Of a stretch of 64,000 nt of DNA, positions 5,664 through 36,289 are shown piece by piece. Under the pieces are notes generated by a model, which saw nothing but the letters and a program-made list of their open reading frames with translations, was not told where the DNA came from and did not search any database. Source of the DNA: a virus. The translations under genes were made by a program, and so were the position numbers. Each line of letters opens with the position of its first letter. Position 1 is the stretch's first letter. The stretch covers positions 26,230-90,229 of the IMG/VR virus record IMGVR_UViG_3300032070_000002; one strand, written 5' to 3'.

Positions 5664-7885
5664 AAGTAAAAAACCTAAATAATGTAATAGAACAATTGAA
5701 ACCTTTCTTAAAGGATTATTTAGAAACCCAAGGAACGGAATTTACGCGTTCTCATTTTACTTGTCCAAATAGGGTATGGCATAAAAATAATGACGCTAAA
5801 CCGTCCTGTGCATTTTACCCGGATGAAAGTTCTTTTCATTGCTTTTCCTGCGGGAAAAACGGATCTATCTTTGATGCAGCTAACTTACTTGAAGGGTTAC
5901 CCTTAGAAGGAAGTGAGTTTATAGAAACCGTAGTAGAATTAGCAAAACGATTTAATATTACCGTAGAGATAGAAGAAGACTCTGTAGATAAATATCAAAC
6001 AAAATTAAAAACATTACTAGAATTAGTAAGGGATGTAGCCTATAAGACTTATTTAAGTAATAATGAAATAAGGGAATACGTAAAGAAAAGAGGCGTAAGT
6101 GAAATAGAAGATAAAGTTAAATTTGGATATCTTAAATACGATTCCTTACTTCCTTTTCTTACTACTAAAGGATATACTGAAAACGATATAAAAGAAGCGG
6201 GTTTATTTAGAGAGTTATTAAATGAAAGATTAATTATACCTATATACGATTCTTTTAATAGATTAGTAGCGTTTGGAAGTAGAAAAATTAAAGAGGATCA
6301 ATCGGAAAGGTATTATTTATCCTCCACTTGTCAAGTATATAAAAAGTCTGAAATTTTATTTAATTTTAATAATTCAAAACAATATGAAACAATTTATATA
6401 GTAGAAGGATTTTTAGATGCCTTTCAATTAATTAAAAATGGTATTCCCAATGTTGTAGCAGTTTGCGGAGATGCTATATCGTATAAACATATAAGGTTAT
6501 TAGTAAAATATAAAGTTAAAAAAGTTATACTTTTATTTGATAGCGATAACGCGGGAAAAGAGGCTACCAAGAGTGCTATATCGGCTTTATCTAAAACCCC
6601 GGAGCTAGAGGTATATATTAAGGAATTATCGGATGCTAAAGACCCGGACGAATATCTATTGAAGTACGGAAAAGATAAGTTTTTACAGCTTCCGGAAAGT
6701 TCTATGTTTGACTATAAACTTAAAAAATATATAGATTCAAACTTAGATAAGAATTTAAAGGAAGACCTTTTACAATTTATTTCGGAAGAACAAAGTTTTA
6801 TTGAAAAAGAACATATGTGTAAAAAGTTAGCAAAGGCGGCTAGTGTAAAAACGGAAACGGTATTGAGTGAAATAGAAAGAATAGAAAAAGTAAAGTTAGG
6901 AGATTACGGAGTAACTACTTCTGATATAGTAAATGAAAAAGATACTTTAAATAAAGAAATATTTTTATTTGAAAGTTGGTCGGAAAGTAGAGGAAAATTA
7001 TTAGGACTAAATATTGCACAATGGCCTATAATGACTGAAAAATTAGACGGTTTTCAAAATGCGTTATTTATAGTTGCAGCGGAAGAGAATACGGGTAAAT
7101 CGGCATTAACTTGTTCGTTATCTTTAAATTTAGCATTATCTAATCCGGGTAAAGTTTTTATATTATATTTTGGATTAGATGTAAGTAATAGAACAATGAT
7201 AGCTAGAATGGTAGCTAATTTATCGGGTCTGCCTATTAATACTGTTTCAAATCCTAAATATAAAATTTTAGAAAATCCTACTATAATAAATAAAGAAGAG
7301 TTAATGAAAATAAGGGAAGAAAAAATAAATCAAATTAGATTATTATCGGATACTATTTCTATTAAGGATGAAAAAACTATAAGATCGATAGAGGATATGG
7401 AAAGATTAATTAAGGTATATTTAAAAGCATATGAAGGAAAACAATTAGTCGTAATAATAGATAGTTTAAATCAAATGCATACAGCGGTTAAAAAAGAGAC
7501 GCGTGATATTTATATGTATATTTCGGATAAACTAAAGGAGTGGACTGTAAAATTTGATATCCCGGTTATAGCTATTTCAGAATTAAGAAAATTAGCACAC
7601 CCGGGAATGAGGCCTACTAATGATGATATAAAGGAAGTAAGCGATTTAAAATATGATGCGGATGTTACGATTTTACTTTATAATGAACTTCATTCAAAAA
7701 GGGATTCTTCTACAAGAACTTTTATAGGAGAAGGAGGCATAGTTTATCCTATAGTAGAATTAATATTTTATAAAAATAAAACGTCGGAATTTAAAGGAAC
7801 ACTCTTTTATAAATTTTATACGGATACAAGTCGCATAGAGGAATGTACTATTGAAGAAATGAGAAAGTATTGGAGTGAAAGATGA
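5660..7885 (+). CDS. DnaG-type primase / DnaB-type helicase fusion
   Basis: Zn finger CP..H...PS...FHCFSCG; Toprim IVEGFLD and LFDSDNAG, KDPDE; helicase Walker A NTGKS, IIDSL, ISEL, YDADV, KNK. Confidence 0.9.
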   Translation: MKVKNLNNVIEQLKPFLKDYLETQGTEFTRSHFTCPNRVWHKNNDAKPSCAFYPDESSFHCFSCGKNGSIFDAANLLEGLPLEGSEFIETVVELAKRFNITVEIEEDSVDKYQTKLKTLLELVRDVAYKTYLSNNEIREYVKKRGVSEIEDKVKFGYLKYDSLLPFLTTKGYTENDIKEAGLFRELLNERLIIPIYDSFNRLVAFGSRKIKEDQSERYYLSSTCQVYKKSEILFNFNNSKQYETIYIVEGFLDAFQLIKNGIPNVVAVCGDAISYKHIRLLVKYKVKKVILLFDSDNAGKEATKSAISALSKTPELEVYIKELSDAKDPDEYLLKYGKDKFLQLPESSMFDYKLKKYIDSNLDKNLKEDLLQFISEEQSFIEKEHMCKKLAKAASVKTETVLSEIERIEKVKLGDYGVTTSDIVNEKDTLNKEIFLFESWSESRGKLLGLNIAQWPIMTEKLDGFQNALFIVAAEENTGKSALTCSLSLNLALSNPGKVFILYFGLDVSNRTMIARMVANLSGLPINTVSNPKYKILENPTIINKEELMKIREEKINQIRLLSDTISIKDEKTIRSIEDMERLIKVYLKAYEGKQLVVIIDSLNQMHTAVKKETRDIYMYISDKLKEWTVKFDIPVIAISELRKLAHPGMRPTNDDIKEVSDLKYDADVTILLYNELHSKRDSSTRTFIGEGGIVYPIVELIFYKNKTSEFKGTLFYKFYTDTSRIEECTIEEMRKYWSER

Positions 7886-8565
7886 TGTGTAATAAGGGAC
7901 AAGAATTTAATGTGACAAATGATATTTGCCTTAAATGTGATAATTTTAGGGAGTGTAGTTTTTTTAAAACATTTAAGGAATTAGAAAATAAGTCTTTAAA
8001 CATTCCAAAAATATTAGGAGTAACGGATAAAGGAAAATTTCAAATAGAGTATACCGAAATAAAAGAAATAGCATTAAGTCAAAATAAAAATTCTAAATAT
8101 TATAAGGGAGATAAAATTACAGAAAATGAAGTAAAAGATTTTCAAATAACATTAGGTTTAGTAAATACGATAGACGATATTATTAACATAATAAGGAGGT
8201 ATTAAATGAAGAAACTTAATAAGTTTGAAAACGTAGCATTTAATTGTTTACGGAAGTTATTCGGATTTAATAAAGCGTTAAATATAATGAGAAAATTTTG
8301 GAGAGGATATTTTAGATTACAATATCTTCCTAAATCGCTATACTATAGCGTAGTAATATTTTATTATAAATCGTGTATTCTTCTTATTAAAAAGGTAGGT
8401 ATATAAAATGAAAATACAAATATACTCTATAATGTATAGAAACTTAAAAAATGTATTCACATTTTTACACGGTACGAAGAATGGTAAAGAATGCATAATA
8501 GGAGAGTGTCACGGTTCTTTATGGAATACTATAAAACTTATATTAAAAGTTTGGAGGACGAAAAC

Positions 8566-8937
8566 GTGAAAATTCAAACAGAAGTAAAATTAGATTCTGC
8601 TCATAGATTACCGAACTATATTGGCAAGTGTGCTAATTTGCACGGGCATACTTGGAAGATAGTAATTACGGTAGATGCAGAAGTTTTAGATATAAACGAA
8701 TTTGCGGTAGATTTTGTAAAGGTAAAAGAAGTAATGAATAAATACGACCACACCTACTTAAATAATTTTATAGAAAATCCTAATGCGGAAAATTTAGCTT
8801 ATAAGTTTGCTAATGAGATAAAGGAATTAGGTAATCAATATATGGAAGGAACCGCAAGTCCGATAGGAAATAGATTTAACTACGTGACAGTTAAAGTGTA
8901 TGAAAGCGAGGTTAGTTTTGCTGAGGTCACAATATAG
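8566..8937 (+). CDS. queD: 6-carboxy-5,6,7,8-tetrahydropterin synthase
   Basis: SAHRL...CANLHGHTW, DHTYLN, AENLA, VYE; likely start is GTG 8566 (GGAGG RBS, GTGA overlap with small upstream ORF 8408..8569). Confidence 0.92.
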   Translation: MKIQTEVKLDSAHRLPNYIGKCANLHGHTWKIVITVDAEVLDINEFAVDFVKVKEVMNKYDHTYLNNFIENPNAENLAYKFANEIKELGNQYMEGTASPIGNRFNYVTVKVYESEVSFAEVTI

Positions 8938-8949
8938 GGAGGGTAAATA

Positions 8950-9438
8950 ATGAAATACAAACTAACAAATGTAACAAAGGTATGGTGTGGAATAACCTTG
9001 CATCAGATTGAGGCGACTATTTCTTTTGGTGGTATATCTAAAGGCGATAAGGGGGGATATATAGAAAAAGAAAATAATTTAGACCAATCTGGCGACGCTT
9101 GGGTGTCTGACAACGCTCGGGTGTCTGGCAACGCTTGGGTGTATGGCAACGCTCAGGTGTATGGCGACGCTTGGGTGTATGGCAACGCTTGGGTGTCTGA
9201 CAACGCTTGGGTGTCTGACAACGCTCGGGTGTCTGACAACGCTCGGGTGTATGACAACGCTTGGGTGTATGGCAATGCTCAGGTGTATGGCGACGCTTGG
9301 GTGTATGGCAAATTAAAACTTACTTTTGGGTACTTTTTTGGAATACGCTTTAAAAAAGAAAAAATAAAATATGTAAAATTAGATGATAATAATGAGATTA
9401 TTTGTAAGGGGGATATAAAGTTTGAGGAACTTAAATAA
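8950..9438 (+). CDS. Phage hexapeptide-repeat (left-handed beta-helix-like) protein
   Basis: [14 protein letters not shown] followed by (V[SY][GD][ND]A[WRQ])x12. Confidence 0.85.
9091..9306 (+). repeat. 12 x 18-bp coding tandem repeat
   Basis: Unit g[ga]c[ga]a[ct]gct(tgg/cgg/cag)gtgt[ca]t; 216 bp. Confidence 0.95.
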
Positions 9439-10109
9439 CCTATGCCTAACCCCGGAGGCTCACAATGAATGAATTACGGGAAGCGATTGAGGTATTAGAG
9501 CAACTTTATAATATCAGAATGGGGCAATGTGGTTATATGCCACCATACGAAACGAGTAAAGAGGCAAAGGCATTACAGCTTGCTATTTCCTTCCTCCAAG
9601 TTTTAGAGGGCAAGGGGATGCCGGAGTTTCATTCAGTTAAGGATAATTATACTTCTTTTGAAAAATATACCGAATGTGAACATAAGAAGATTGATGCACT
9701 CGGAAATAATTGCCAAGCGTGTGATATTGCCTGGCTTATAGAAAGATGCAAATGTTTAGAAAAAACTATTAAAGAATATAATGTCTACCACGCCAAACTC
9801 CAAGCAGAATGGCGGGAGAAGGCGGGGGTGGAGAAGATAGAGAAAATAATAGAAGAAAATGACGAATTTCCTAATATGTCTATTCAAACATTAAGAGATT
9901 TAAATGTAAATAATTTATTAGCATATAATCCAAAAAGATTAGCCCAAGCCCTATCTGATTACCTGGAGGTAAAGTGAGTATGGAGAATAAAATGATGCAA
10001 TGTAGTATTTGTAAAGAATTTTTTAATCCCGCAATGTTATCAGAAGTATTTGAACACGAACATAGTAATATATCTACAGATAAAGAATACTACGGAAAGA
10101 AAGTAGAAA

Positions 10110-10541
10110 ATGAAAAAAATTAAGTATACTTGGCAAGAATTTGATAAAGATGTAATACTTTTAATTAGAAGGATTAAGTACTCAAAATTTCAGCCGGAAA
10201 CCTTAGTCTGTCTAGCTACAGGCGGTTGCCCTCTAGGTACAAAATTACATAATAGATTAGAAAAACCCCTAACAATTATAAGTGTAAAAAGTTACGAGGA
10301 TACTAAACAGGGTGCGATACTTTTAAATAGTTCCTATACCGTTCCTTTAAGGTCTCCGGTTTTATTATTAGATGATGTGGCGGACTCCGGAAAAACTATA
10401 CAATTAGTAAAATCACATTTAGAGTTGGGAGGAGTAGAAGTAAGGACGGCTACACTGTTTTATAAAGAACATTCTGTAATTAAACCCGATTGGTATATTC
10501 ATAAAATAAGTGAGGAATGGCTAATTTTTCCTTGGGAGTAA
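10110..10541 (+). CDS. Purine phosphoribosyltransferase (Gpt/Hpt-like, type I PRTase)
   Basis: LATGG, PRPP-binding VLLLDDVADSGKT, C-terminal WLIFPWE. Confidence 0.9.
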   Translation: MKKIKYTWQEFDKDVILLIRRIKYSKFQPETLVCLATGGCPLGTKLHNRLEKPLTIISVKSYEDTKQGAILLNSSYTVPLRSPVLLLDDVADSGKTIQLVKSHLELGGVEVRTATLFYKEHSVIKPDWYIHKISEEWLIFPWE

Positions 10542-10542
10542 T

Positions 10543-11700
10543 ATGAATAAAATTTTTATAAATCTTCCAAGTAAATATACTACTATTATGTTAGTAGCAC
10601 CTACGGGATTAGTAAACGAATTTGAAAAATATCCTTACGGTATTTCTCATTTTTTAGAGCATATGCATTTTAAGGGTACAAAGAAAAGAACTACAAAACA
10701 AATAGCTTATGATATAGAAAGATACGGCGGAGATTTAAACGCTTTTACGGATAGTGAAATTACGGGTTATTATGTTAAAATAGCTAATCGTTATATGAAT
10801 AAAGGTTTTGACGTAATTTCAGACCTAGTAGAAAATTGCGTAATCCCGGAAGAGGAAATAGATAAAGAAAGAAAAGTAATATTACAAGAGTTAAAAAGTT
10901 ATGAAGACGATCCTCAAGAGAAAGTTAGTGATTTATTTTATACAAATATGTATAATATTCACTATCCACTTCATTACCCTATTATAGGTTTCCCTTCTAC
11001 TTTAAATCAAATAGGTAGAAAGGAATTATTAAAATATAAAAAGGATAGATATAATCCATTAACTTTAATTATAGTAGGCGATATCGCGGATTGTTTAGAT
11101 ATTAAATTGTGTCCTACCTCTTATCCAAAAGTAAATTTTCTTTCTACTAACAAAGAAAAATTTATAGAGCGAAATAATTTACAACAAGCACAAGTTATTA
11201 TAGGATTTTCTCAATTTTTACCTATTGATGCTACAACTTTATTTTTTACGGTAGCTTTAATAGAATCAATTTTAAACGATATGAGCGGAAGACTATTTAC
11301 GGAAATTAGAGAAAATCATAATTTAGTATACGGTATTAGATTTTCAAGTACTATTTTTGGAAATAATCTATTTCAATGGAAAGTAAGTTTAGGATTAGAA
11401 AAAAATAAAATAAATCAAGCAAAAGAATTAATAATTAAGGAATTAACAAGACCTTTTACTAGCCAAGAAGTTGAAGATGCGGTAATTAAATCTATAGGAG
11501 AGCTAGAATTAAGGACTTCGTCTTTTTTAATTTCTAATATTATCGCAAATAGTATAACGACTAATATAGATTGGCAACGAATAATTTTTAACTATAAAGA
11601 GGAATTTAAGAGAGTAAAAGATTATGTAAATAGTGTGCAAGAATTAATAGATTTTACTAATTATAAAATAGTAGGCCTCATTCCGGGAGATAAAAAGTGA
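10543..11700 (+). CDS. M16 (pitrilysin-like) zinc peptidase
   Basis: Inverted zincin GISHFLEHMHFKGT, NAFT, ERKVILQE, RLFTEIRE. Confidence 0.92.
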   Translation: MNKIFINLPSKYTTIMLVAPTGLVNEFEKYPYGISHFLEHMHFKGTKKRTTKQIAYDIERYGGDLNAFTDSEITGYYVKIANRYMNKGFDVISDLVENCVIPEEEIDKERKVILQELKSYEDDPQEKVSDLFYTNMYNIHYPLHYPIIGFPSTLNQIGRKELLKYKKDRYNPLTLIIVGDIADCLDIKLCPTSYPKVNFLSTNKEKFIERNNLQQAQVIIGFSQFLPIDATTLFFTVALIESILNDMSGRLFTEIRENHNLVYGIRFSSTIFGNNLFQWKVSLGLEKNKINQAKELIIKELTRPFTSQEVEDAVIKSIGELELRTSSFLISNIIANSITTNIDWQRIIFNYKEEFKRVKDYVNSVQELIDFTNYKIVGLIPGDKK

Positions 11701-12338
11701 AGATAAATGAAATTTTTAAGAGTATACAGGGTGAAGGAAGATTTCAGGGATATCCTGCATTGTTTATTAGGGTTTCCGGTTGTACAAGAAAGTGTAAATG
11801 GTGCGATTCTAAATACCATATTAACGGGGAAGAATTTACGATAGAAGAATTAGTAAATGAAATTGATGATAGGCCAGAAACGGCTATAGTTGTATTTACT
11901 GGAGGCGAGCCCTTACTATATTTAGAAGAAATAACACACATAATTAGCGAGTTAAAAGGTATTGACGTTAAGTGGCATTTGGAAACGAATAGTGATTTAA
12001 TTAAGACTCAAAAAGATTTTAACGATATAATAAAAACTTTTAACTATATAGTAATTAGTCCAAAGGAATTATCTGTTGTAGAAGAAATAATTAAATTTAA
12101 AAATGCTACCTGTTTTAAGGACTATCTTGAAAGGGTTGAAATAAAAATAGTAACTGACTTAGATAAAATAAATAAAGATTTAGTGCCTTATGCTACTTCT
12201 TTAATGCCCTATACTTCTTATAATAAAAAGAAAGATATAGAAATAAGAAAAAGAGTATGGGCGTATTGCGTAACACATAATTTACATTATAGTGCTAGAT
12301 TACAAGTAATAAATTTTAATAAGAAGAGGGGGGTATAG
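11697..12338 (+). CDS. queE: 7-carboxy-7-deazaguanine synthase (radical SAM)
   Basis: EIFKSIQGEG, FIRVSGCTRKCKWCDS, TGGEP, ETN, ISPK. Confidence 0.92.
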   Translation: MKINEIFKSIQGEGRFQGYPALFIRVSGCTRKCKWCDSKYHINGEEFTIEELVNEIDDRPETAIVVFTGGEPLLYLEEITHIISELKGIDVKWHLETNSDLIKTQKDFNDIIKTFNYIVISPKELSVVEEIIKFKNATCFKDYLERVEIKIVTDLDKINKDLVPYATSLMPYTSYNKKKDIEIRKRVWAYCVTHNLHYSARLQVINFNKKRGV

Positions 12339-12931
12339 TGGATAACTTTCCCGAGTTTAAAGAATTTAAAAAAATACCTAGATTAAGTAGAAAGATTATT
12401 ATTACCGAAAAAATTGACGGCACTAACGGTTTAATTTATATTGACGAAATAAATAATATTTTTGCAGGAAGTAGAAACAGATTTCTTTGGGGATCAATTC
12501 AAGAAGAAATTCATAATGATAATCACGGTTTTGCTCAATGGGTAAAAACTAATAAGGAAGAATTATTAAAATTAGGCAAGGGGTATCATTATGGCGAGTG
12601 GTGGGGAAGCGGAATACAAAGAGGCTATAATTTGCCTAAAGGAGAAAAGAGATTTAGTTTATTTAATACCGATAGATGGATTAAAGATAGAACACAACCC
12701 CTATTAGAAAAACAAGAGTATTGTCCCGAATGTTGTTACGTTGTGCCTATTTTATGGACAGGTATTTTTAATACATCCGACATAGATTCTATTTTAGATA
12801 ATTTAGTATTAAAAGGTAGTAGTGCTTCATTAGGATTTATGCAACCAGAGGGAATTGTAATTTATCATAGGGCGGGTAATTTAATGTTTAAGAAAACGAT
12901 TGAGAAGGATGAAAAAGGAAAAAATGAATAA
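12338..12931 (+). CDS. RNA ligase (Rnl2-like nucleotidyltransferase)
   Basis: Motif I TEKIDGTN, SR, YGEWWG.GIQ, F.LF, EGIV. Confidence 0.8.
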   Translation: MDNFPEFKEFKKIPRLSRKIIITEKIDGTNGLIYIDEINNIFAGSRNRFLWGSIQEEIHNDNHGFAQWVKTNKEELLKLGKGYHYGEWWGSGIQRGYNLPKGEKRFSLFNTDRWIKDRTQPLLEKQEYCPECCYVVPILWTGIFNTSDIDSILDNLVLKGSSASLGFMQPEGIVIYHRAGNLMFKKTIEKDEKGKNE

Positions 12932-13810
12932 TATTTGGTCTATAAATATTTCAGATTTTTTAGAAATACTAGAAGAGGCAATTAAGTTAGGTAGAGAAAG
13001 AGGTAAAAAAGAGGGCGAAAATATAGAACCGGAATTTTTTGAGATAGCAAAAAAGAAAAATAAAATGCCTAAACATTTAGGCGCAACAGAATTAAATAAA
13101 GAAGAATTACTAGAAGAATATAAATTAAGAAATTTAAAAGTATTAGATTTAACTAAAAAGGAGAAATAAATGGAAGAGTTAAAATTATATAACGGGTTAC
13201 GCGTTAAAGTTTGGCAGTTAGGCTGCGGCGAAAATAAATCCGCAGGCGGATATTCTATTTGTAGAGTATATATTTGGAGTGAAAATTTAATTAAGGAGTT
13301 AGGATTAGGGCAGCCCTTTCATTGCGCATATCAAGAAGCTGAAGAGTTAGCGGTTTTAATAGATGCGGAATTAACTTTAAATGGATCAATCGTAAGAAAA
13401 TCTACTAACGGAGAATATAAATGAAGTGTATAATTTGTAATTTAGAATTAACAGAAGCCGATGAAATAATAACTCAATACGGTTTAGATATGCATAAAAG
13501 TTGTGAAGAAAAATTTATATACTATACTAATCCTACTTATAGAGACTATATAAAATGTTGTAATGTAAAACACGATATAATAGGTTTACTTAAACAGGGT
13601 AAATTTATAGGTATTGGAAAATGTAAAATATGTGGAAAGACTTATATTACTAGTAGACTTCCAAAAAATCCAAAACCTAGAAAACCTAAAGCTCCAGAAA
13701 GATATTCAGACGACGCCGAAAGAAGAAAAATGTTTGGAGTAAAGTAAAATGGTTATTAATTTATTAATAATATATTTAACAATTTTATATATAGTATCAA
13801 GGAGAAGAAA

Positions 13811-14644
13811 ATGAAGGACTTACTACCGGATATTCAAAATACGCCTGTTTCTTCTATTCAAATAGATAGAGTAGGAGTAACGGATATTGATTTTCCGCTA
13901 CCCATAAAATTAAAAAACGGTATAATTCAAACTATTTATTCTACCGCACATTTATATGGTTCCTTACCTAAAACAAGAAAAGGAACTAATATGTCTAGGT
14001 ATTTAGAAGTATTATTTCAACAAAAACAACCTTTAAACGTAAGAAAAAATTTAAGAGATTTTCTATATCAATTATTACAAGTAGTAGATACGAAGGATAT
14101 ATATTGTGAAATTAATTTTAAATTATTTATGGAGAAAATAGCTCCGGTTTCAAAAAAGAAAGGTGTGTTAGCATATAATTGTTCTCTTATAGGCAGATTA
14201 CAACAAGGTAAGTATACTTTCTTTAATTATGCATATAAAATTAAAGTTCCCGTTACTTCGGTTTGTCCTTGTTCTAAACAAATAAGTAAGTTCGGCGCAC
14301 ATAATCAAAGAGGCTACGTTGAAGCTACTATAATATTTGAAAAAAATAAATCAATTCCTTTAGAGGATTTAATAAAACTAATAGAAAAACAAGGCTCGTG
14401 TGAACTATATCCTATTTTAAAAAGACCCGATGAGAAATACGTAACCGAAAAGGGCTATAAAAATGCAAAATTTGTAGAGGATATATGTAGAGATGTGGCT
14501 ATTAAGTTGCAAGAGATAAGTGTAATAAAGAAGTTTAAAATTAAGGTTGAAAATTTTGAAAGTATACACGACCATAACGCGGTAGCGTATGTTTTTAGAA
14601 AGAGACGGGGTAAGAGATGGACTTCAGATATACAAATAATTTAA
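13811..14644 (+). CDS. folE2: GTP cyclohydrolase IB
   Basis: LPDIQ, IDRVGV, KGTNMSR, CPCSK, AHNQR, KRPDEK.VT, FVED, ESIHDHNA. Confidence 0.93.
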   Translation: MKDLLPDIQNTPVSSIQIDRVGVTDIDFPLPIKLKNGIIQTIYSTAHLYGSLPKTRKGTNMSRYLEVLFQQKQPLNVRKNLRDFLYQLLQVVDTKDIYCEINFKLFMEKIAPVSKKKGVLAYNCSLIGRLQQGKYTFFNYAYKIKVPVTSVCPCSKQISKFGAHNQRGYVEATIIFEKNKSIPLEDLIKLIEKQGSCELYPILKRPDEKYVTEKGYKNAKFVEDICRDVAIKLQEISVIKKFKIKVENFESIHDHNAVAYVFRKRRGKRWTSDIQII

Positions 14645-15211
14645 AAAGTGTTCTACATTTGAATTATAATATAGATAAGGAGGAAGTAAATGAGTGCAGA
14701 TAATGGCGTTTATATCTTACATACTAAAGATGGATATCGTGTAACTCAAGCTCAAGCGATAGAGAATATTTATTGGTGGAGAATTTATACGTGTGATTGT
14801 AAAATAGGTAATTCAGAAAGTTGGAGTGAATGTATAAAATGTGGAGCGTTAATTATTAATGAAGAAAGGCCGGAACCAAATCCAATAGTATTAAAAAATT
14901 ATTTCGGATTGTGCAAAGTGTTTAACATAGTAGAAGAAGCGTTAAAAGAAGCGGGTAGAATTTATAATGAAGTAATTAACGATCCTATTTGTCCAATCTG
15001 TGAATACGGTATCGGCGTGCTTGATTGTAGTAAAATAGTATTTCCAAAATAGAGGAATAGATGAAAGTTACTTGTCCGTTATGTGGAACAGAAGTAGAAG
15101 CAAAAGAAATATTTTTACATACCTCGGAATTTAGAATTTTCGGATTATCTTTATCTCAAATAAAGAAAAGATTAGATTTTGCTAGGAGTAAAGATTATGC
15201 GGAGGAATAGA

Positions 15212-15412
15212 ATGGAAACACTTTCAGGCCTTTGGAAAAATAAGGGTAAAACAGGCGAATACTTATCCGCTTCTTTAGGTAAGGTAAAAATTTATGTATT
15301 TCCAAATTCCTTTAAACAACTAGGTACTAATCAACCTGATTATTATTTATGTGTAAAAGGAGCCGAAGGTTTATTTAGTAAAATTTTAAATAGAATATTT
15401 AAGAGGAGGTGA
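15212..15412 (+). CDS. Small DUF736-like / OB-fold protein
   Basis: GLW...K.G.YLS....F.N..K....PDY pattern; ATG at 15212 after GGAGG. Confidence 0.5.
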   Translation: METLSGLWKNKGKTGEYLSASLGKVKIYVFPNSFKQLGTNQPDYYLCVKGAEGLFSKILNRIFKRR

Positions 15413-15416
15413 GTAA

Positions 15417-15647
15417 ATGGGCAAGAATAGCAGATTAGGAAGAATCAAAGGTTTATTAGCAGAAGGAAAGACAACCGATGAGATAGTAGAAGTTATAAAG
15501 GCGAAGTTTCCGGATGCAAAGTCTACCGTTGTAAGAGGCCAGATTTATTCCGCGAAGAAAGGTAAGACAGTAAAGGAAACAGCTACAACAGAAGGCGTAG
15601 AAAAACCGGCGGAAGGTACTACTACCGCTCCAACGACAGGCGTTTAA
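15417..15647 (+). CDS. Small basic putative DNA-binding protein
   Basis: Strong AGGAGGTG RBS, Lys-rich helical domain, Thr-rich tail, followed by terminator. Confidence 0.6.
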   Translation: MGKNSRLGRIKGLLAEGKTTDEIVEVIKAKFPDAKSTVVRGQIYSAKKGKTVKETATTEGVEKPAEGTTTAPTTGV

Positions 15648-15671
15648 TAAATAATAAAGATCGATAAGGAG

Positions 15672-15710
15672 AGTAAGAGCTATCCGTTAAAGATAGCTCT
15701 TACTTTTATT
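15672..15710 (+). terminator. Rho-independent terminator
   Basis: Perfect 13-bp stem AGTAAGAGCTATC / GATAGCTCTTACT, 7-nt loop, followed by TTTATT. Confidence 0.85.
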
Positions 15711-15716
15711 AAAATT

Positions 15717-16457
15717 ATGAAATTAGCTTTTATTGTTCCTAGTTCTTATATTAAAGAAGTAGATAAGTATTGTGACTTACACTTATTTCTTTCTCATTTA
15801 CTTTATAATAATTCTTACGCCGCCGCAGTTTTATCAATTAATAAATATAAAATTTTAGATAACGGCGCTTTTGAAACTGGCATACCGGAAGAAGGAAATA
15901 CGCTATTATCAAAAATGGATTTTGTAAAAGCAAATGAAGTAATATGCCCTGATATATTTTACAATACAAAGGAAACCTTAAAAAAAGTTAAAACTTTTAT
16001 ATCTTTTTTAAAGAAGAAAAAGGAATTAAGAAATTATAAATTACAAGCTTCTATTCACGGCAGAACATTAAATGAATTATTATATTGTTATGCAGAATAT
16101 TTAGATATAAAAGAAATAGACGTAATAGGAATAGGCTATACCGCTATAAAATATAGCGGATTTAGTAGGATAGAATTTATACGCGGATTACAAGGAGAAG
16201 GATTATTACAAAAATCCATACATTTGTTAGGGTTAGGAAATAACGGGGGAGAAGAGTTGAAGGAGTTAGGCAAATGTAAATTTATAAGGTCAAATGACAG
16301 TTCTGCAGCGTATGTTTTAGCAAGGGATAATAAATTAATAAGTCCTATAGGAAAATTTGAAAGGAATAAGAAACCTATAGATTTTAATGACGAATATAAA
16401 TTAGAAACATATTTAACTCTAAAGCGAAATATGCAAACTTTAAGAAGGTTAGGATGA
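15717..16457 (+). CDS. dpdA: DpdA-like (TGT-fold) DNA 7-deazaguanine transglycosylase
   Basis: ILDNGAFE, ICPD, IHLLG, IRSNDSS match TGT/DpdA motifs; sits among folE2/queCDE. Confidence 0.75.
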   Translation: MKLAFIVPSSYIKEVDKYCDLHLFLSHLLYNNSYAAAVLSINKYKILDNGAFETGIPEEGNTLLSKMDFVKANEVICPDIFYNTKETLKKVKTFISFLKKKKELRNYKLQASIHGRTLNELLYCYAEYLDIKEIDVIGIGYTAIKYSGFSRIEFIRGLQGEGLLQKSIHLLGLGNNGGEELKELGKCKFIRSNDSSAAYVLARDNKLISPIGKFERNKKPIDFNDEYKLETYLTLKRNMQTLRRLG

Positions 16458-17200
16458 AATATTTTGAGCGCTGGTCAGAAAAGGAACTTAAAGAATTAGA
16501 AGAATATATGAAACAAAAGTTAACTAGCGAAGAAATTGCTAAACTTTTAGATAGAACAGAAAATACGGTAAGAATACATATGAGAAGATTAAGAACTAAA
16601 ACTTCTACCTATGGAAATAAGGGAGGTAGAAGATATAAAAGAGAATTAGATACCGAATTTATTAATTTAATTAAACCTAAAGATATACTAGACGGTTATT
16701 GCGGTAGTGAAACACATTATCCAAAAGAAATAACAATAACAAATGATATAAATAAATCTTTTAATACCTCTTATCACTTACCGATTTTTAAACTTTTAGC
16801 AAAATTTACATATGAAAATAAGAAATTTGATTTAATAGATTTAGACCCTTGGGGTTCTGCATACGATAGTTTATATTTAGCAATTTATTTAGCTAATAAA
16901 GGTTTAGTAGTTTCTTACGGCGAATGTTACTTAAAAAGATTTAAGCGTATAGATTTTGCGGCAGAAAAATACGGTTTGTATTTTGATAAATACGGTTTTA
17001 GTACAAAGATGTTAGTTGAATATACAAAACATTTAGGAATGATTTGCCGAAAAAAATTAGAAGTATATAAGGATTATGATTTAGGGCACTTTAGTAGAGT
17101 ATACTATATAATAAAACCTTTAAAAACATTAAAAGTTGTCCAAAGTTGGAATACTATTAGAGAAAGAAAAGAAGAGTATGCTAAAAAAGCAGTTACATAA
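16454..17200 (+). CDS. HTH + Rossmann methyltransferase with Trm1-like DLDPxG motif
   Basis: N-terminal W..E...L...EIAK.L.R...V HTH; ILDGYCG, NDIN, FDLIDLDPWGS. Confidence 0.65.
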   Translation: MKYFERWSEKELKELEEYMKQKLTSEEIAKLLDRTENTVRIHMRRLRTKTSTYGNKGGRRYKRELDTEFINLIKPKDILDGYCGSETHYPKEITITNDINKSFNTSYHLPIFKLLAKFTYENKKFDLIDLDPWGSAYDSLYLAIYLANKGLVVSYGECYLKRFKRIDFAAEKYGLYFDKYGFSTKMLVEYTKHLGMICRKKLEVYKDYDLGHFSRVYYIIKPLKTLKVVQSWNTIRERKEEYAKKAVT

Positions 17201-17621
17201 AAAACATCTTAATTATTGGCGTAAACGTAAAAGATGTATTATTTGTAAAGTAATATTAACTAGAAAAAATTTACGCCCTTGGATGAAAAGGTGTTACAGA
17301 TATATTTGTAATATATGTGAAAGAAAAGGGTCTATATCTTACTATAGGGAACATCAATTGTCTTCTGGAAATAAGTATTTTTCTAATATTAATAAACGGT
17401 CCTATCCTAAAGACGGTAAATGCGAAATTTGTAAAAGGAATAAAACCCTTAAAGGTAAATCTATTAGATTAGTTTACCACCACTGGAATAATAAAGACTT
17501 TTTGAAAGGTATTTGGACGTGCGTATATTGTCACGCTATGATGGAGTGTATAGAAAAAGGGCGTCATTTAGTTTATTTTAAACTTAAAAAATTAATAGAA
17601 AAATTAGAAGGTAAAAAATGA
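17136..17621 (+). CDS. HNH-type endonuclease
   Basis: CxxC pairs, CEIC...LVYHH...WTCVYCH; true start may be ATG at 17178. Confidence 0.65.
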   Translation: MSKVGILLEKEKKSMLKKQLHKKHLNYWRKRKRCIICKVILTRKNLRPWMKRCYRYICNICERKGSISYYREHQLSSGNKYFSNINKRSYPKDGKCEICKRNKTLKGKSIRLVYHHWNNKDFLKGIWTCVYCHAMMECIEKGRHLVYFKLKKLIEKLEGKK

Positions 17622-18499
17622 GTAAACCCCGGGCGGAAGCTAGAAATTTGTGGATAGAACGTTTCAAAAACTATTTAAAAACTCTAAAAAAAGAAGAATT
17701 AGAGTTAATAAAAAAAGAAGTGTTGCCTACCTCTAAAGTAAATAATTTAGAAGTTTTTAATTCTGGAATAATGGGAAGTCAAAGATTAATATATAAAGAG
17801 ATAACAAATAATATTCCTAAGGATGTAAAAACGATAGCCGTTCCTTTTGCTTGCGGTTTAGATTTAACTTATTATTTAACTAAAAAGGGTTATGTAGTTT
17901 ATTCTTGTGATAGAATGGAATGCGTAAGAATATTAACAGAAGTATTAAAAGATTTTATAACGGATACGGATTTAGTAAAAGCTTCAAATATTTTATGTTT
18001 TACAACGGGAAAATCTTTTGGTTGGGAAGACTATATCAAAATTATGCGGTTAAAATTATTTGTAGGTGATAAGTATAGGAATTGGTTTCATTGGCAAGAA
18101 GATGCTTTTGAGTGGCTACCTAGAATGATGGCGGCCCTGAATGTGGATTTAGTATATTTAGGTACGCCCACTATAATGGAAAATAATAAGAAATTCTATC
18201 AAAGATATGTAAAGTTAGAAAAGGAGTTAGGTAACGAAATTTCGGACGATTGGAATAGAGATAACGAAATGTTAAGGTTCCGTAAATTAGTGGAAATATG
18301 CAAGTCCAAAGCCGTTAAATACGTATACGCTGGCCACGGTAGTGGAGTCTCTAAAGTAGAAGAAAAAGAAAGTATATTAAAAGAATACTATAAGTATGTC
18401 TATACACTTTTTAAGCCGTATGATACCTTTAATGATTACGTGTTGTTTGCAAGTGAAGTACCCTTAAGGATTGATAGGAGACTATGGTATGAGAGATAA
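17618..18499 (+). CDS. Degenerate Dam/D12-class N6-adenine methyltransferase-like protein
   Basis: MGSQRL, VPFACG (for PF.GG), DAFEW, DLVYLGTP (for D.VY.DPPY). Confidence 0.55.
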   Translation: MSKPRAEARNLWIERFKNYLKTLKKEELELIKKEVLPTSKVNNLEVFNSGIMGSQRLIYKEITNNIPKDVKTIAVPFACGLDLTYYLTKKGYVVYSCDRMECVRILTEVLKDFITDTDLVKASNILCFTTGKSFGWEDYIKIMRLKLFVGDKYRNWFHWQEDAFEWLPRMMAALNVDLVYLGTPTIMENNKKFYQRYVKLEKELGNEISDDWNRDNEMLRFRKLVEICKSKAVKYVYAGHGSGVSKVEEKESILKEYYKYVYTLFKPYDTFNDYVLFASEVPLRIDRRLWYER

Positions 18500-18649
18500 G
18501 TGTAAAAGTTGTAAGTTTAGAATAAGATTTAAGGGCTATTTTTCGGAGAGATATAATTATAGTTGCGTATATAATAGACGAAAGGAAAATTGGAATAAAG
18601 AATTAAGGTGTAATAAAGAAAACGGTTATTACGCATATCAGGGGAAGAA

Positions 18650-20497
18650 ATGAAAGATAAAGTATTTGTGCTATTTTCAGGAGGAGTAGATTCAGCGGGA
18701 CTATTATTTAACCTTCTTGAAAAAGGTTTTGAGTGTTTTCCCATATATTTCAAATGGCGGACTTGTAACGTAGCTATAAAAGAAGTAAAAATTATAAATT
18801 GGTTCTATGAAATGTATAAAGATAAATACCCGTTATTTCATAAACCGGAAATTCATTTTGAAAGAGAAATAGCAGAAACAATAGATACTAAAGAAAACAT
18901 TATGAGTAGAAATAGAATATTCCTTAAATGGTTGATAGATAGATGTATTAAAGAAAATATACATAACATAGGAATGGGCGAATACTCTTTTAAAAAAGCA
19001 CCCGATATTTGGCAAGAGAATGATGGCAAAAATTGTTGGATTTATTATTGGGGTCCTCCAAATGTTGATTGTGACGCAAACGACTTACAAGGCTTTATAA
19101 ATAAAAATAATCCTAAGGATTTTAAAATTAAACTTTGGACATTAGACGACTTCGGAATTGCTACCTTTAAACACCATAGAGTAGAAATAGGAAGAAAAGT
19201 TATAGGCTATGATATGTTTAAAACAACTTGCCTTTTAAAAGGTACTCAAATACTGATGGAAAATTACTCAATTAAATTTATTGAAGATATCGTAGTAGGC
19301 GATATTATTTTAGGATTACGGGGAAGTAAACTTATACCTTCTAGAGTTATAAGGTTATTTAAAAGGACTTCTAGCGTAGGCTCTTTAAAATATAATAAAA
19401 AAGAATTATTATCTATTACCGATAATCATAAGATATTACAAGTAGCAAAAGATTCTGAAAAAACGTATGTAATTCCTTCTGAATTAGTGAGTACAATTAG
19501 GGTATACGATATTAATAATAGTCGTTTTTTAGATGATTGGTATACGGGTTGGTTAGCGGGTTATACCGAAGGAGACGGTTGTTTGCGGCAATTACCTAAT
19601 AATTACGTATTAAGTTACCATTCAAAAGATATTCAATTATTAGAATTTGTAAATGGTTGTTTAACTCAATTTGGTATACCTAAATTAAATATTAAAATAT
19701 ATGCTACATATAGAGGGCATAATTTATATAAAATGGCTACCTGGAAAAAATCTACAATAAATAAAGTAAAAGAAGTTATTTCTTTTATAGATACGAAAGA
19801 TTATATGAGAGGCTATTTAGCGGGTATATATGATGCGGAAGGTTCCAATCAAAATACTTGTAAACATATTTGTATAAGTAATTCTAATCCGGTAATACTA
19901 AGTAAAATAGAAAAGTTTTTGAAGTGTTTAAAGTATTCGTATAAAAAGAGGTTAGGGCATCCAAAAGGAACGGGTAATTTATTCAGTAATAACGGTAAAA
20001 GATATTTATCTAAAAGAGATTTATACTTAATTTGTATGCCAAATTATATTAAATTTAATATAGAGTGTAAACCGGTGTTAAAAAGAAAAATTAAATATAC
20101 TTCTACTACTTGGAAATTGAAAGATCGAATTTGCAATTTTAAATACATAAACAATATAAAGGATAATCAAGTTGTTTACAATTTAGAAACAGAAACTGGA
20201 AATTATATAGCAAATGGTATAATTGTACATAATTGTTGCGGTAAAGGAGGAAACGGCCCCGATTGTGGAGGCCTATATCAGCAGGATTATTTATGCGCAG
20301 AAAGACACGTAGCAATGTTAAAAGTTTTTGGATATGACAACACATTTTATTTAAAGGATCCTAAATTTAATCCTTACTTTATTGAGTATTGTGTTCAAAT
20401 GAATTATTTACCGGGTATTCTTTGGACACTTAAAAATAATAAAAAGGCTTTAAGAATTTCAAAATTAAATTTAATTAAAATATTAAAAGAATATTAA
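18650..20497 (+). CDS. queC: Divergent QueC-like PP-loop ATPase with intein
   Basis: VLFSGGVDS, RNRIF, spliced C-terminus TT-CC...DCG......C..R resembling the QueC Zn site. Confidence 0.75.
   Translation: MKDKVFVLFSGGVDSAGLLFNLLEKGFECFPIYFKWRTCNVAIKEVKIINWFYEMYKDKYPLFHKPEIHFEREIAETIDTKENIMSRNRIFLKWLIDRCIKENIHNIGMGEYSFKKAPDIWQENDGKNCWIYYWGPPNVDCDANDLQGFINKNNPKDFKIKLWTLDDFGIATFKHHRVEIGRKVIGYDMFKTTCLLKGTQILMENYSIKFIEDIVVGDIILGLRGSKLIPSRVIRLFKRTSSVGSLKYNKKELLSITDNHKILQVAKDSEKTYVIPSELVSTIRVYDINNSRFLDDWYTGWLAGYTEGDGCLRQLPNNYVLSYHSKDIQLLEFVNGCLTQFGIPKLNIKIYATYRGHNLYKMATWKKSTINKVKEVISFIDTKDYMRGYLAGIYDAEGSNQNTCKHICISNSNPVILSKIEKFLKCLKYSYKKRLGHPKGTGNLFSNNGKRYLSKRDLYLICMPNYIKFNIECKPVLKRKIKYTSTTWKLKDRICNFKYINNIKDNQVVYNLETETGNYIANGIIVHNCCGKGGNGPDCGGLYQQDYLCAERHVAMLKVFGYDNTFYLKDPKFNPYFIEYCVQMNYLPGILWTLKNNKKALRISKLNLIKILKEY
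19229..20233 (+). mobile_element. Intein with LAGLIDADG homing endonuclease (335 aa)
   Basis: N-term CLLKGTQILM, TDNHKI block B, WLAGYTEGDG and YLAGIYDAEG, VYNLET..NYIANGIIVHN|C. Confidence 0.95.
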
Positions 20498-21064: not shown

Positions 21065-21511
21065 ATGTTTACTAATATAAGATTCCAAGGATTCTTAAAA
21101 TATAAAAAAGTAGTTTCCGATGCAAAAATTGATATGCCGGTATTTAGAGGAGATGTAGGATATGATATTCATTCTATAGAAGACAAACTAATAAAAGCTA
21201 AAAGTTCTGAAATCGTAAGAACCGGTTTAGCTTTTGAAGTTAGTGAGGATTATTGGTTAGAATTAAGAACTAGAAGCGGCCACGGAGTAAAAAATTGTTT
21301 ACAAATTCATATGGGAACCATTGATTCGGGATATAGAGAAGAGGTAACTATAAAAATATATAACCACGGTAATCAGGATTATCAAATAAAGAAAGGAGAT
21401 AAAATTTGTCAATTAGTTATTCACCCGAGAATTGTTTTACCCGCTAAAGAAGAAAAATATTTAAAGTCCTCGGATAGAGGTTTAAAGGGATTAGGGTCTA
21501 CGGGAGGATAA
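21065..21511 (+). CDS. dut: Trimeric dUTPase
   Basis: GYDI, TGL, RSG, GTIDSGYR, GDKICQLV, RG.KGLGSTG. Confidence 0.93.
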   Translation: MFTNIRFQGFLKYKKVVSDAKIDMPVFRGDVGYDIHSIEDKLIKAKSSEIVRTGLAFEVSEDYWLELRTRSGHGVKNCLQIHMGTIDSGYREEVTIKIYNHGNQDYQIKKGDKICQLVIHPRIVLPAKEEKYLKSSDRGLKGLGSTGG

Positions 21512-21512
21512 A

Positions 21513-22007
21513 ATGAAGAAAGTATTAACCGTAATGGTAGGTAATATAGGCTCGGGTAAATCAACAATAATAAAGAAATTAAGGTTACTTCCGCCCGGCT
21601 ATGTAGTAATTTGCAGAGATAGTTTAAGATATATGATAGGCGGCGGCGATTATGTTTTTAATCCAAAGTTAGAGCCAACCATATTTAGGTCAGAAAAAAG
21701 TATTTTAGAAAACTTTATGGAACAATGTGAAAATGTAATAGTAGATGAAGTAGGAATAAGTAAAAGTATGAGAAGGCCGTATATAGATTTAGCGATAGAT
21801 TATGGTTATCAAGCAGTAGCAATTGTAATGCCTAAGTTAACTATGGAAGAATCTGTAAATAGAAGAATGAATAAACCCCACGGTACTCCTAGAAAAACGT
21901 GGTATGAAGTTTGGAAAAAGTTTGACGAGTTATATGAAGAACCTACTAAAAGAGAAGGATTTAGAGATATAATTAAAATAGGAAGAGAAGAAGTAGGGTT
22001 AAAATGA
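21513..22007 (+). CDS. AAA_33 / polynucleotide-kinase-like P-loop kinase
   Basis: GNIGSGKST, CRDSLR, VIVDE, R...R lid. Confidence 0.8.
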   Translation: MKKVLTVMVGNIGSGKSTIIKKLRLLPPGYVVICRDSLRYMIGGGDYVFNPKLEPTIFRSEKSILENFMEQCENVIVDEVGISKSMRRPYIDLAIDYGYQAVAIVMPKLTMEESVNRRMNKPHGTPRKTWYEVWKKFDELYEEPTKREGFRDIIKIGREEVGLK

Positions 22008-22158
22008 ATTTAAACGAACAATTATTACAAGAGGTACAAATTTCTATAGATAAAGTAAATCATATTATGGCGGATGATGAACTTACTCCTTCCGCTAAAC
22101 AGTTTCTTTTAAAAGAAGAATTTAAAAAACAAAGAAACTTAAGTAAGATGAGAGAAGA

Positions 22159-25100
22159 ATGGAACAAGACATAAAACCGGATAATTGTATTAAGTGCGGC
22201 CTTTGGAAGACTAGTTGTGTAGTAAACTATCAAGGACAATTCTTTGCATATAGAGTTATGGGAACCGGTCCTCAAAATGCTAAAGTTATATTTATAGGAG
22301 AAGCTTTAGGACAAGCCGAAACAATTAATCAAAAACCGTTTGTAGGAGATGCGGGCGATACTCTAAATATCGCCTTAAAAGAAGCTAATATAAATAGGGA
22401 AGACGTTTATATAACAAATACTTGTAAGTGTTTTTACAGTCCTAATGTATTAGTATTTACTTCAAAAGGATGGAAAATGCTTGGAAAGATACGTAAGGAC
22501 GATTTAGTATTAACTCATAAAGGACGATTTAGAAGAGTTATAGCCCCTTTAAAAATAAAGGTACATCCGGACACTACTTTTTTTACTTGTTATCTTAAGT
22601 CTAACGGCGGTAATCCCTATAAAATTACCGTTACCGGAGATCATAAATTTTTAACAAATAAGGAATGGACTAAAGTTAGCGACTTACGAATAGGGGATAG
22701 GGTAAGAGTTCTTGCACAAAAATGTATTCAATGCGGTTCCTTATTTTATTCGGATTATAGGCAAACTCAACTTTGCTCCTTAGAATGTACTAAGAAATGG
22801 AACGGTATTAGAGGTGCCCGTCAAAACAGAGTTCAAAATATTAGAGATAATATTTCTAAAAGTATGAAAGAATTATATAAAAAAGGAATAAGAAACGGAT
22901 TTAAAGATACTATTAATTTTCGTAGAAAATTAGACGGTAGCTTAAATGTTATAGGTAGAAACGGGGTAGGCGAAAAAGAACTATACGAATTATTAACTAA
23001 GAATAGGTACGAAGTAAAGCGCCAAAAATTAATAGCGGATAGATATTTTGCAGATTTTTATTTACCTAAATTGAATATAGTAATAGAGGTGTGGAATAGT
23101 AGTTATAGAAGTATGATAGATAAAAGAATATGGTATGAACAAAGAGGTTATAAATTTTTAGATTATCATTATTCAATAATTTTTAGATATCCGGAAGTAA
23201 TTTTAACGGAAATTAGAAATTTAGAAAAAAATGATAATCACGAATTTAACTTTATAGATACCTTATTAATAGATAAAAAAGGGATTACGCCGAGACGAAA
23301 AAGCGTATTTTCTTTATCGGTAGTAGAAGACGAATCTTTTATAGCAGGGGGTTTAGTTTCGCATAACTGTCGTCCTCCTGAAAATAGGCCGCCTAAAACA
23401 ATGGAAATAAAATGCTGTCTTCCTTTTTTATTAGAAGAAATTAGAAATATAAGCCCAAAAATTATATGTACTTTAGGAAGTGTAGCGTTAGAAGCAATAT
23501 TAAAACGTAAAGGAATATCAAATATTAGAGGTAATATATACGAAACCGAAATAGAGGGATTAAAAGTTAAAGTTATTCCTACCTATCATCCGGCCTATGT
23601 TTTAAGACGTCCCGAATATCCTAATTTAAAAGTAGACTTTCATAAAGATATAAAGTTAGTTAAAGAAGTAAGCGATAATTTAGATTATAAAAAAGAAAAG
23701 CTTCCTACCTATTACTGTACTACTCCTAAGGTAGAAGATATTTTAATATATATAGATAAAATTAAAAAAGTAGGCTTATTTGGGTACGATATAGAAACGG
23801 AAGGTTTTAACTTTTTAAAAGATAGAATCATATCTATAGCCTTAAGTTGCGTCGTACAAGAAGCTATAGCTTTTTATTTGATAGATTATACCCCGGATGA
23901 ACAAGATAAAATATTTGCGGGATTAAAAGAAATATTAGAATCAAAAGAACTTCTTAAAATAGGTCAAAATTTAAAATTTGATAATAAGTTTTTTAAAACA
24001 TACGGTATTGAAGTTAAACTACCCTTATTTGATACTATGTTAGCACATTTTTTAATAGACGAAAATAGTTCTCACGGTTTAAAAGATTTAGCTTATAAAT
24101 ATACGGATATGGGTGGATATGAAGAAAACTTTGAAAATATATTTAAAGAATTAAAAGGTAAAATGAAAAAAGATTTAATAGAAAGTTTAAAAGAAACAAA
24201 GAAAAACTCTTTAGAAGTATATACTAAATTATTACAAGAAGGATTAGAAAAGATAGATAATTTTTCTATAGTACCTAAAGAAGTTTTATTACCGTATAAC
24301 GCCTCTGATGTTGATTGTACTTTAAGGATTTATTATGCATTAAAAGATTTAATAGAAAAAGAAGAATTGACTAAAGTATACTATTATATTATGATACCTT
24401 TACTAATAGTATTAACGGAAACGGAATATAGCGGTATTCAAATAGATACTAACTACCTTAATATTTTATCAAAAGATTTACAAGATAGAATAGAAGATAT
24501 ACAATTTCAAATAAATAGTAGGCCGGAAATAAAAAAAGTAGAAGAACTTTTACCTAGTTTAATTAAAAGTAAAAAAATAGAAGATATTAAATTTAATATT
24601 AATTCTCCTAAACACCTTCAAGTCTTATTGTATAAAGTTTGTAATTTACAACCTATTAAACAAATAAAAACCGGTTATTCAACGGATGAGGCTACTTTAA
24701 AAACATTACAAGAAAAAAGTGAAATAGTAAAGTTAATTATGCAATATAGAACGATCAATCACGATTTTACTACGTATGTAGAACAATTAAGAAGTAGTTT
24801 AGATGAAAACGGAAAATGTCATACGGATTATATGCAACACGGCGCTGTTAGCGGTAGAGTAATTTCTCATAAACCTAACTTACAAAATATTCCTAGGGAT
24901 TCTAATATTAAAAAATTATTTATACCGGATAAAGGGTGCGTAATAATATCTGCGGACTATGCTCAAATTGAGTACAAAGTATGGGCTAACTATTCTAATG
25001 ATCCTCAAATGTTAGAGGATATTAGAAATGGGTTAGATATCCATTCGGAAGTTTGTTGTTTAGTGTGGCCTCACTTATATAAAAAAGTAGGCGACAAACA

Positions 25101-35964: not shown

Positions 35965-36289
35965 TTAAAGTTAAGGTTACTTTAATACAGGCGGATATAT
36001 TAGTAGTAGGTAAGTATTCTATTTCCGAAGAGGCTTGTTTAGGAATGATAAAAAGGTTTAAAGAAAATACTGAACCTGTTTTAGTTAGATTAGGTAAAAC
36101 TCCTTTAGTAATAGGTAAGTTAGTAGGTTTAGAATATAATAAAGAGAAAAAGGAATTATTAGGTGTTATTGATTTATATATGGATTTTAATGCAGGCGCA
36201 CAAATATTACAACAATTAGATACGCCCGACGGAATCAGAATATTAGATAGTAAAATAAAGGAAATTACAATGACCCCGGGAGGAAAAGG

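Follow-up and report, generated by a model that had tools for sequence, protein, structure and literature searches.

The window analysed here is the right-hand 64 kb (64,000 nucleotides) of a linear virus record of 90,229 bp (IMG/VR record IMGVR_UViG_3300032070_000002); it originates from a sediment metagenome, has a G+C content of about 29% and carries all of its genes on a single strand. It contains a block of genes for 7-deazaguanine modification of DNA (Table 1), in which FolE2, QueD and QueE are accompanied by a DNA guanine transglycosylase assigned to the DpdA3 subfamily and by a pair of proteins, one derived from DNA adenine methyltransferases of the Dam/DpnM type and the other a divergent QueC-like PP-loop ATPase. 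The block is placed in the replication arm, with a primase-helicase gene (5660-7885) on one side and genes for a dUTPase, a kinase-like protein and the DNA polymerase PolA (21065-25746) on the other. FolE2, QueD and QueE, which had been named in an initial annotation of this DNA, were recovered with clear profile matches, as was its purine phosphoribosyltransferase (PRTase).

Completeness of the record was estimated at 78% (CheckV), and absences from the 90-kb record are read against this value. Gene contexts of protein relatives were drawn from IMG/VR scans and cover the Dam-like relatives other than P0046, P0047 and P0048. Deposited phages were searched by tblastn in a set of 50,697 genomes; the block as a whole gave no match to deposited phages with megablast.

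Table 1. Features of the deazaguanine block, with positions in the window.
Feature	Position	Strand	Evidence and remarks
QueD (6-carboxytetrahydropterin synthase)	8491..8937	+	PF01242 E 6e-23; TIGR03367 E 1e-23; CxxxHGH signature present
Gpt/HGPRT-like purine phosphoribosyltransferase	10110..10541	+	PF00156 E 6e-19, over cut-off
M16 (HxxEH) peptidase	10543..11700	+	PF00675 E 5e-29; located between the PRTase and QueE genes
QueE (7-carboxy-7-deazaguanine synthase, radical SAM)	11697..12338	+	PF04055; top NCBIfam matches all QueE models; CxxxCxxC present
FolE2 (GTP cyclohydrolase IB)	13811..14644	+	PF02649 E 3e-79; NF010200 239 bits (cut-off 215)
Predicted DNA guanine transglycosylase, DpdA3 subfamily	15717..16457	+	Family profile, fold, gene context
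Helix-turn-helix (HTH) + Trm1-like class I methyltransferase	16454..17200	+	248 amino acids; motif DLDPWGS
Cys-rich protein, HNH-like pattern	17136..17621	+	Likelier start ATG 17178 (start codon context)
Dam/DpnM-derived protein, DPPY changed to GTPT	17618..18499	+	Foldseek, VIA, family profile, gene contexts
60-amino-acid open reading frame bridging the Dam-like gene and queC	18471..18653	+	TTG start; called as reading frame only; doubtful gene, absent in locus L139
Divergent QueC-like PP-loop ATPase	18650..20497	+	615-amino-acid reading frame: extein of 280 and intein of 335 amino acids
LAGLIDADG intein, 335 amino acids	19229..20233	+	PF14528 E 3e-13, PF14890, PF05203; TIGR01443 over cut-off

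The DpdA3 transglycosylase

The dpdA call of the initial annotation was upheld and narrowed to the DpdA3 subfamily on the strength of profile and fold comparisons, the protein itself giving no direct Pfam match to the TGT, DpdA or DUF6610 models. A family profile of 52 sequences, with the window protein as its first row, was aligned by using hhalign over 246 columns to CGPG_00065 of Cellulophaga phage phiST (probability 100%, E 9.7e-44), the founding DpdA3 (PMC10516641). The same profile matched PDB entry 7ui4 ('DNA-guanine transglycosylase', E 6.9e-5) with the QG, HLLG and DS motifs aligned, unlike an earlier DpdA profile of ten sequences, which found no match in the PDB. The ESM Atlas model of the protein gave TM-scores of 0.85-0.91 to clusters named TGT or DpdA, and members of its family matched the DpdA3 genes of Cellulophaga phages phiST, phi13:1 and phi19:2 and of Campylobacter phages. 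IMG/VR held 196 relatives; among the loci of the best 80 of these, 55 had one or more que genes within 10 kb. By sequence, the protein is a member of the DpdA3 subfamily, and as such it would exchange guanine in DNA.

A perfectly paired hairpin of 13 bp, with a T-run after it (15672..15711, + strand), looks like a terminator and ends five bases before the ATG of dpdA, with no obvious ribosome-binding site between it and the start codon. It was read from the sequence and did not emerge from the consensus scan for promoters and terminators, whose counts did not differ from those in shuffled sequence. Just upstream lies a gene for a small Lys/Thr-rich protein (15417-15647), a paralogue of which is encoded at 789-1313 (phmmer, E 5e-14).

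The Dam-derived and QueC-like proteins

The structural model of the Dam-like protein (pLDDT 85.3) was matched best, and over the longest alignments, by E. coli Dam (E 1e-7), T4 Dam and DpnM in Foldseek; comparison with Dam-class structures by using VIA gave Z scores of 15.2-15.3 and root-mean-square deviations of 3.2-3.6 over 196-201 residues. The profile of its family matched DpnM (E 5e-4), in an alignment that pairs GGKRQLL, PFVGGG and DPPY of DpnM with GGQRLIL, PFACGL and GTPT of the window protein, and PF02086 was matched by three of the seven family members. In sequence and modelled fold the protein is Dam-derived, and its description as degenerate in the initial annotation was borne out. 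Motif IV reads (G/D)(T/S/M)PT across the family, which departs from the catalytic pattern (D/N/S)PP(Y/F/W), and the FxGxG loop that binds S-adenosylmethionine (SAM) is reduced to PFACGL in the window, with a single Gly that is itself not conserved in two of the seven members. Because DPPY is missing and the glycine loop is degenerate, simple methylation by this protein is doubtful. The family possesses invariant motifs of its own, GxGxG at 239-243 and F271/D273. With the D12-class adenine methyltransferases (E. coli Dam, T4 Dam and DpnM) it has the fold, the order of motifs and motif X in common; it is set apart from them by the altered motif IV, by the degenerate loop and by a genetic tie to QueC and DpdA instead of restriction systems. 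Relatives are rare: eight were found among 1.84 billion representative proteins, none in two metagenome scans and none by tblastn in the deposited phage genomes. Searches of the PDB with single sequences of the three proteins that lacked an assigned identity were uninformative.

The product of the last gene of the block matched phrog_1550 ('QueC-like', E 5e-7). Its PP-loop motif SGGxDS is present in residues 8-17 (LFSGGVDSAG) and aligns with the QueC profile; with a local QueC profile the spliced extein reached 21.9 bits, the match lying at the PP-loop and the C-terminal Cys motif. The intein opens with Cys1 and closes with HN before Cys+1, and its insertion site is the conserved Cys with which the zinc motif of QueC begins. 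Its boundaries were set by end-to-end alignment of the spliced extein with the intein-free orthologue of the syntenic locus L139, with which the extein shares 45% identity along its entire length. This orthologue lies just over the Pfam QueC cut-off (22.8 bits, cut-off 22; positions 3-199 of 210) and shares the zinc Cys cluster CGxCYLC with the orthologues of the jumbo-phage contigs L140 and L141. The jumbo-phage protein is 37% identical to that of the window (E 4e-41). Together with the QueC-like proteins of loci L145 and L150, these sequences form one clade, the members of which are far closer to one another than to canonical phage QueC; tblastn against the deposited phage genomes gave no match to the window protein. 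A partner domain of the glutamine amidotransferase (GATase) type was ruled out, as the extein comprises just 280 amino acids and has no such domain, in line with the earlier statement that Gat-QueC is absent.

Within a small sample, the genes for the Dam-like protein and the divergent QueC co-vary. They occur together in the window, L139, L140/L141, L145 and L150; in four cases they overlap or abut, and in the jumbo contigs the Dam-like gene abuts the DpdA3 gene instead. All retrievable contexts of Dam-like genes lie in deazaguanine clusters, always with a QueC of the divergent clade. The gene order in L139 is PRTase, FolE2, two small reading frames, Dam-like and QueC-like (overlapping), a small reading frame, DpdA3, dUTPase and PolA; that in L145 is QueD, QueE, two reading frames, FolE, Dam-like and QueC-like. 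In L150, where the Dam-like gene is shortened, it shares 4 bases with the QueC-like gene, and QueD, QueE and FolE follow; in the jumbo contigs DpdA3 overlaps the Dam-like gene, with QueD 7 kb upstream and the QueC-like and QueE genes 12-15 kb downstream. Profile searches of 80 other DpdA3 loci detected no Dam-like member and no QueC of the divergent clade; canonical QueC was present in 29 of the 36 complete pathways among them.

The shortened Dam-like relative of L150 (9129-9728, 199 amino acids) retains GGQ, YLGTPT and GLGSG. It lacks some 95 positions in the interval from motif I to motif IV and represents a minimal or else a decayed form.

Proposed pathway and alternatives

FolE2, QueD and QueE lead, by the established pathway of their families, from GTP to 7-carboxy-7-deazaguanine (CDG). 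On balance, and with some reserve, we consider it probable that the window encodes a DpdA3-type system that replaces guanine of the phage DNA by a 7-deazaguanine, with the QueC step carried out by the divergent QueC and the Dam-derived protein as a pair. No canonical QueC is present; its place is taken by this two-gene module, the members of which would act together at the conversion of CDG into the amide or nitrile, and DpdA3 would then exchange G in DNA for the completed base. Most likely the Dam-derived protein would be a non-methylating partner. It may present CDG already in DNA (dCDG) to the QueC-like enzyme by base flipping; alternatively, it could be a regulatory or substrate-holding subunit. 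The base-presenting role agrees with a published proposal in which CDG may be the base that DpdA3 inserts, so that later conversion in DNA is needed (PMC10516641). The HTH-Trm1-like methyltransferase, the Cys-rich reading frame and the intein would be mobile cargo, inserted between dpdA and the module.

The default product would be 7-amido-7-deazaguanine (ADG) or 7-cyano-7-deazaguanine (preQ0) in DNA (dADG or dPreQ0); a new 7-deazaguanine derivative is perhaps conceivable, on the unlikely side. The absence of QueF and ArcS stated in the initial annotation was confirmed: the 90-kb record gave no match to QueF (PF14489), ArcS/DUF5591 (PF17884), a formyltransferase of the DpdN type (PF00551) or the CxxCxxCC family of YkgJ/DpdM type (PF03692, the choice of which as model for that family is a guess), and phmmer found no second PTPS of the DpdL type in it. 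The QueD of the window was ruled out as such a DpdL-type paralogue, as its CxxxHGH signature is kept.

Several observations weigh against the proposed pairing. The window QueC-like protein reaches 15.3 bits against Pfam QueC (PF06508; cut-off 22), and this with its N-terminus only; it has four Cys residues whose spacing is altered relative to the orthologues, with the intein at the first of them. The divergent queC of the initial annotation stands as a divergent QueC-like PP-loop protein, below the family cut-off and interrupted by an intein. Motif X (GGQR) and an aspartate at the motif II position are retained in the Dam-like protein, so that SAM binding and catalysis may persist, and the short copy of L150 is consistent with neither a complete methyltransferase nor a part in DNA recognition. 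The co-variation amounts to four to five independent lineages, since the window and L139 belong to related phages and L140 and L141 are near-duplicates. The overlap of dpdA with the Trm1-like gene implies that the two are co-expressed in this phage, and the Trm1-like protein may still act on modified DNA.

The retained motifs are also where a different reading begins, in which the Dam-derived protein would have a remodelled active site and work as a SAM-dependent transferase. It would then decorate what the QueC-like enzyme makes, as free base or in DNA, for instance to an N-methylated 7-carboxamide, and so yield a base outside the eight known ones. The strict co-variation of the Dam-like gene with a special QueC clade speaks for it, as does the possibility that GxGxG and F271/D273 form a new active site, and QueC homologues of actinomycete deazapurine clusters have been reported as amide synthetases that use other amines (bioRxiv 10.64898/2026.04.15.718813). 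Against it stand the loss of Asp and of the aromatic residue from DPPY, the reduction of the FxGxG loop to one Gly that the family does not conserve, and the L150 copy, which lacks half of the Rossmann core; we regard this reading as tentative and rather unlikely. Much the same doubt applies to the broader proposal that the Dam-derived and QueC-like proteins constitute a dedicated two-protein machine, which would make, or finish in DNA, a derivative beyond the eight known (e.g., an N-substituted 7-carboxamide) that DpdA3 places at most or all guanines. The tailored, non-standard base suggested in the initial annotation is plausible through the co-variation of the Dam-like gene; its simple methylation is doubtful with DPPY lost. 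Likewise, of the two extra methyltransferase-fold enzymes then proposed for the pathway, the Dam-like protein, found in dpdA/que clusters in every retrievable context, retains its place and the Trm1-like protein loses it.

The Trm1 motif itself was correctly recognised. The AlphaFold model of the Trm1-like protein (pLDDT 82.7) was matched best by the Trm1 structures 3axs and 2ejt in Foldseek (E 1e-8 to 1e-7), 16 of 31 homologues are annotated with PF02005, and in the motif D129-L-D-P-W-G-S residues D129, L130, D131, G134 and S135 are invariant and P132 nearly so among 27 sequences. With Trm1 (tRNA guanine-26 N2,N2-dimethyltransferase) it shares the catalytic Rossmann fold and the D-x-DP(F/W)GS signature; it differs in its N-terminal HTH, in the lack of the C-terminal tRNA-binding half (about 190-208 columns are aligned of Trm1 chains of 370-387 residues) and in its occurrence in phage methyltransferase islands. 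Trm1 chemistry would predict methylation of guanine N2; to our knowledge, no enzymatic DNA mark of this kind has been described. A role of the protein in methylation of phage DNA at the exocyclic N2 of guanine or deazaguanine, to give an N2-methylated deazaguanine, could draw on the fold, the intact motif, the HTH and the 4-base overlap with dpdA, an arrangement also seen between the Dam-like gene and the reading frame that ends at 17621. The relatives of the protein tell against it: no homologue of DpdA, of a que product or of the Dam-like protein was encoded near any of them in 55 viral loci, and no QueD in 30 of their whole records, 17 of which are at least 90% complete. They are usually encoded beside other DNA methyltransferases, primases and small nucleases, so that the protein looks like a general anti-restriction methylase. 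Its gene is missing from L139 and from the jumbo contigs in which dpdA abuts the Dam-like gene, and deposited phages gave no tblastn match. With dpdA or que genes at none of the 55 loci and QueD in none of the 30 records, the candidate was rejected as a dpdA-linked tailoring enzyme, and N2 methylation by it is very unlikely. The protein is a generic phage methyltransferase, a passenger in the cluster.

A third reading is a pre-replicative route, in which the PRTase could make a deazaguanine ribonucleotide as ToyH does for toyocamycin; kinases and a reductase would then supply the deoxynucleoside triphosphate, and the phage PolA would incorporate it. The PRTase gene is conserved inside the cluster, a kinase-like AAA_33 gene, the dUTPase and PolA follow it, and the ADG nucleoside has been seen in cells infected with phage CP220 (PMC10516641). 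The conserved DpdA3 gene argues for post-replicative exchange, however, the PRTase resembles 6-oxopurine (Gpt/HGPRT) enzymes, and neither a ribonucleotide reductase nor a dGTP-specific hydrolase was found near the cluster; this is the least probable of the readings considered. The best NCBIfam models for the PRTase are xanthine and hypoxanthine PRTases (Gpt, HGPRT), which it matches far below their cut-offs (38.8 bits, cut-off 138), and homologues are encoded directly beside FolE2 in five of seven FolE2-type DpdA3 loci and also in L139. Guanine salvage is the simplest reading of this enzyme, because transglycosylation frees guanine and FolE2 uses GTP. The recurrent gene suggests that the Gpt-like PRTase would probably recycle guanine released by DpdA to GMP and on to GTP for FolE2; a ToyH-like nucleotide route is the weaker reading.

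Phage 7-deazaguanine DNA is an anti-restriction strategy, of which the DpdA3 branch replaces all guanines (PMC10516641); complete replacement of G goes with DpdA3 in the three phages tested, and DpdA3 has so far been without heterologous activity in E. coli (Cui et al. 2023, PMC10516641). The window has in common with these phages the DpdA subfamily, a FolE/QueD/QueE block between primase and DNA polymerase, and a nucleotide pyrophosphatase-type gene nearby. It differs from them in having FolE2 instead of FolE, in the lack of matches to DpdL, DpdN, QueF and YkgJ-type DpdM, and in the divergent QueC with its Dam-derived partner. Gat-QueC, a fusion of QueC to a glutamine amidotransferase, gives G+, and 'QueC*' is the proposed ADG synthase of phages (PMC10516641); the idea that an altered or partnered QueC changes the 7-substituent is shared with the window, in which the partner is a separate protein of Dam fold and not a GATase domain. 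In the bacterial Dpd system DpdA/DpdB insert preQ0 and DpdC converts dPreQ0 into dADG in DNA (PMC10516641), a precedent both for an accessory protein that helps DpdA and for a 7-substituent that is changed once the base is in DNA; no DpdB or DpdC turned up in the Pfam scans of the window, where the proposed accessory is Dam-derived.

Deazaguanine modification of the DpdA3 type is thus known, and what is new is a rare two-gene variant composed of a Dam-derived protein and a divergent QueC. The pair offers a concrete two-gene candidate for a missing step, for a missing partner or for a ninth deazaguanine derivative, and may bear on which base DpdA3 inserts, how CDG becomes ADG and why the enzyme has not yet worked in E. 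coli (PMC10516641). If the two-protein machine proposed above exists, it would be the first recruitment of a DNA adenine methylase fold into deazapurine chemistry. The Trm1-like methyltransferase is removed as a false lead, and a recurrent guanine-salvage enzyme is flagged in clusters of the FolE2 type.

Neighbouring genes

The HTH-Trm1-like family is confined to phages (55 viral loci, L003-L057) and often stands beside DPPY-type and C5 DNA methyltransferases. The Cys-rich protein encoded after it had been called HNH; it shows a Cys/His pattern only (CxxC..HH..N..CxxCH), and the call was left unconfirmed by Pfam (E up to 1), PHROGs, NCBIfam, the PDB and tblastn against phages, none of which gave a match. 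The gene for the M16 peptidase overlaps that for QueE; no homologue was found in any related locus or cluster, and the enzyme is lineage-specific and probably outside the pathway. Directly after QueD lies a YdcK-type beta-solenoid repeat protein (8950-9438), with a strong match to phrog_7964 and phrog_5070 (function unassigned). A gene of the RNA ligase family (PF09414) is located inside the que block (12338-12931), and another one a few kb from dpdA in a jumbo contig (L140, 6173-6832).

Downstream of the block, a trimeric dUTPase (21065-21511) is followed by the kinase-like AAA_33 gene and by a family A DNA polymerase that bears an intein. No MazG-like reading frame, as had been proposed, was found nearby; the adjacent nucleotide-hydrolase gene is that of the dUTPase. 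In Bacillus phage BSP19, Weizmannia phage Youna2 and Cellulophaga phage phiST, too, the DNA polymerase gene is closely preceded by que genes and a DpdA-like gene, and BSP19 and Youna2 have the primase gene at the opposite end of this block. The polymerase of the window (22159-25746) has an N-terminal domain of the uracil-DNA-glycosylase superfamily that is split by an intein (Intein_splicing, residues 153-403), the second intein of the replication arm besides that of queC. Farther downstream, a DeoC-like aldolase, a protein with a weak DUF1599 (Nmad1) match and an HD-domain protein are grouped at 34719-37598.

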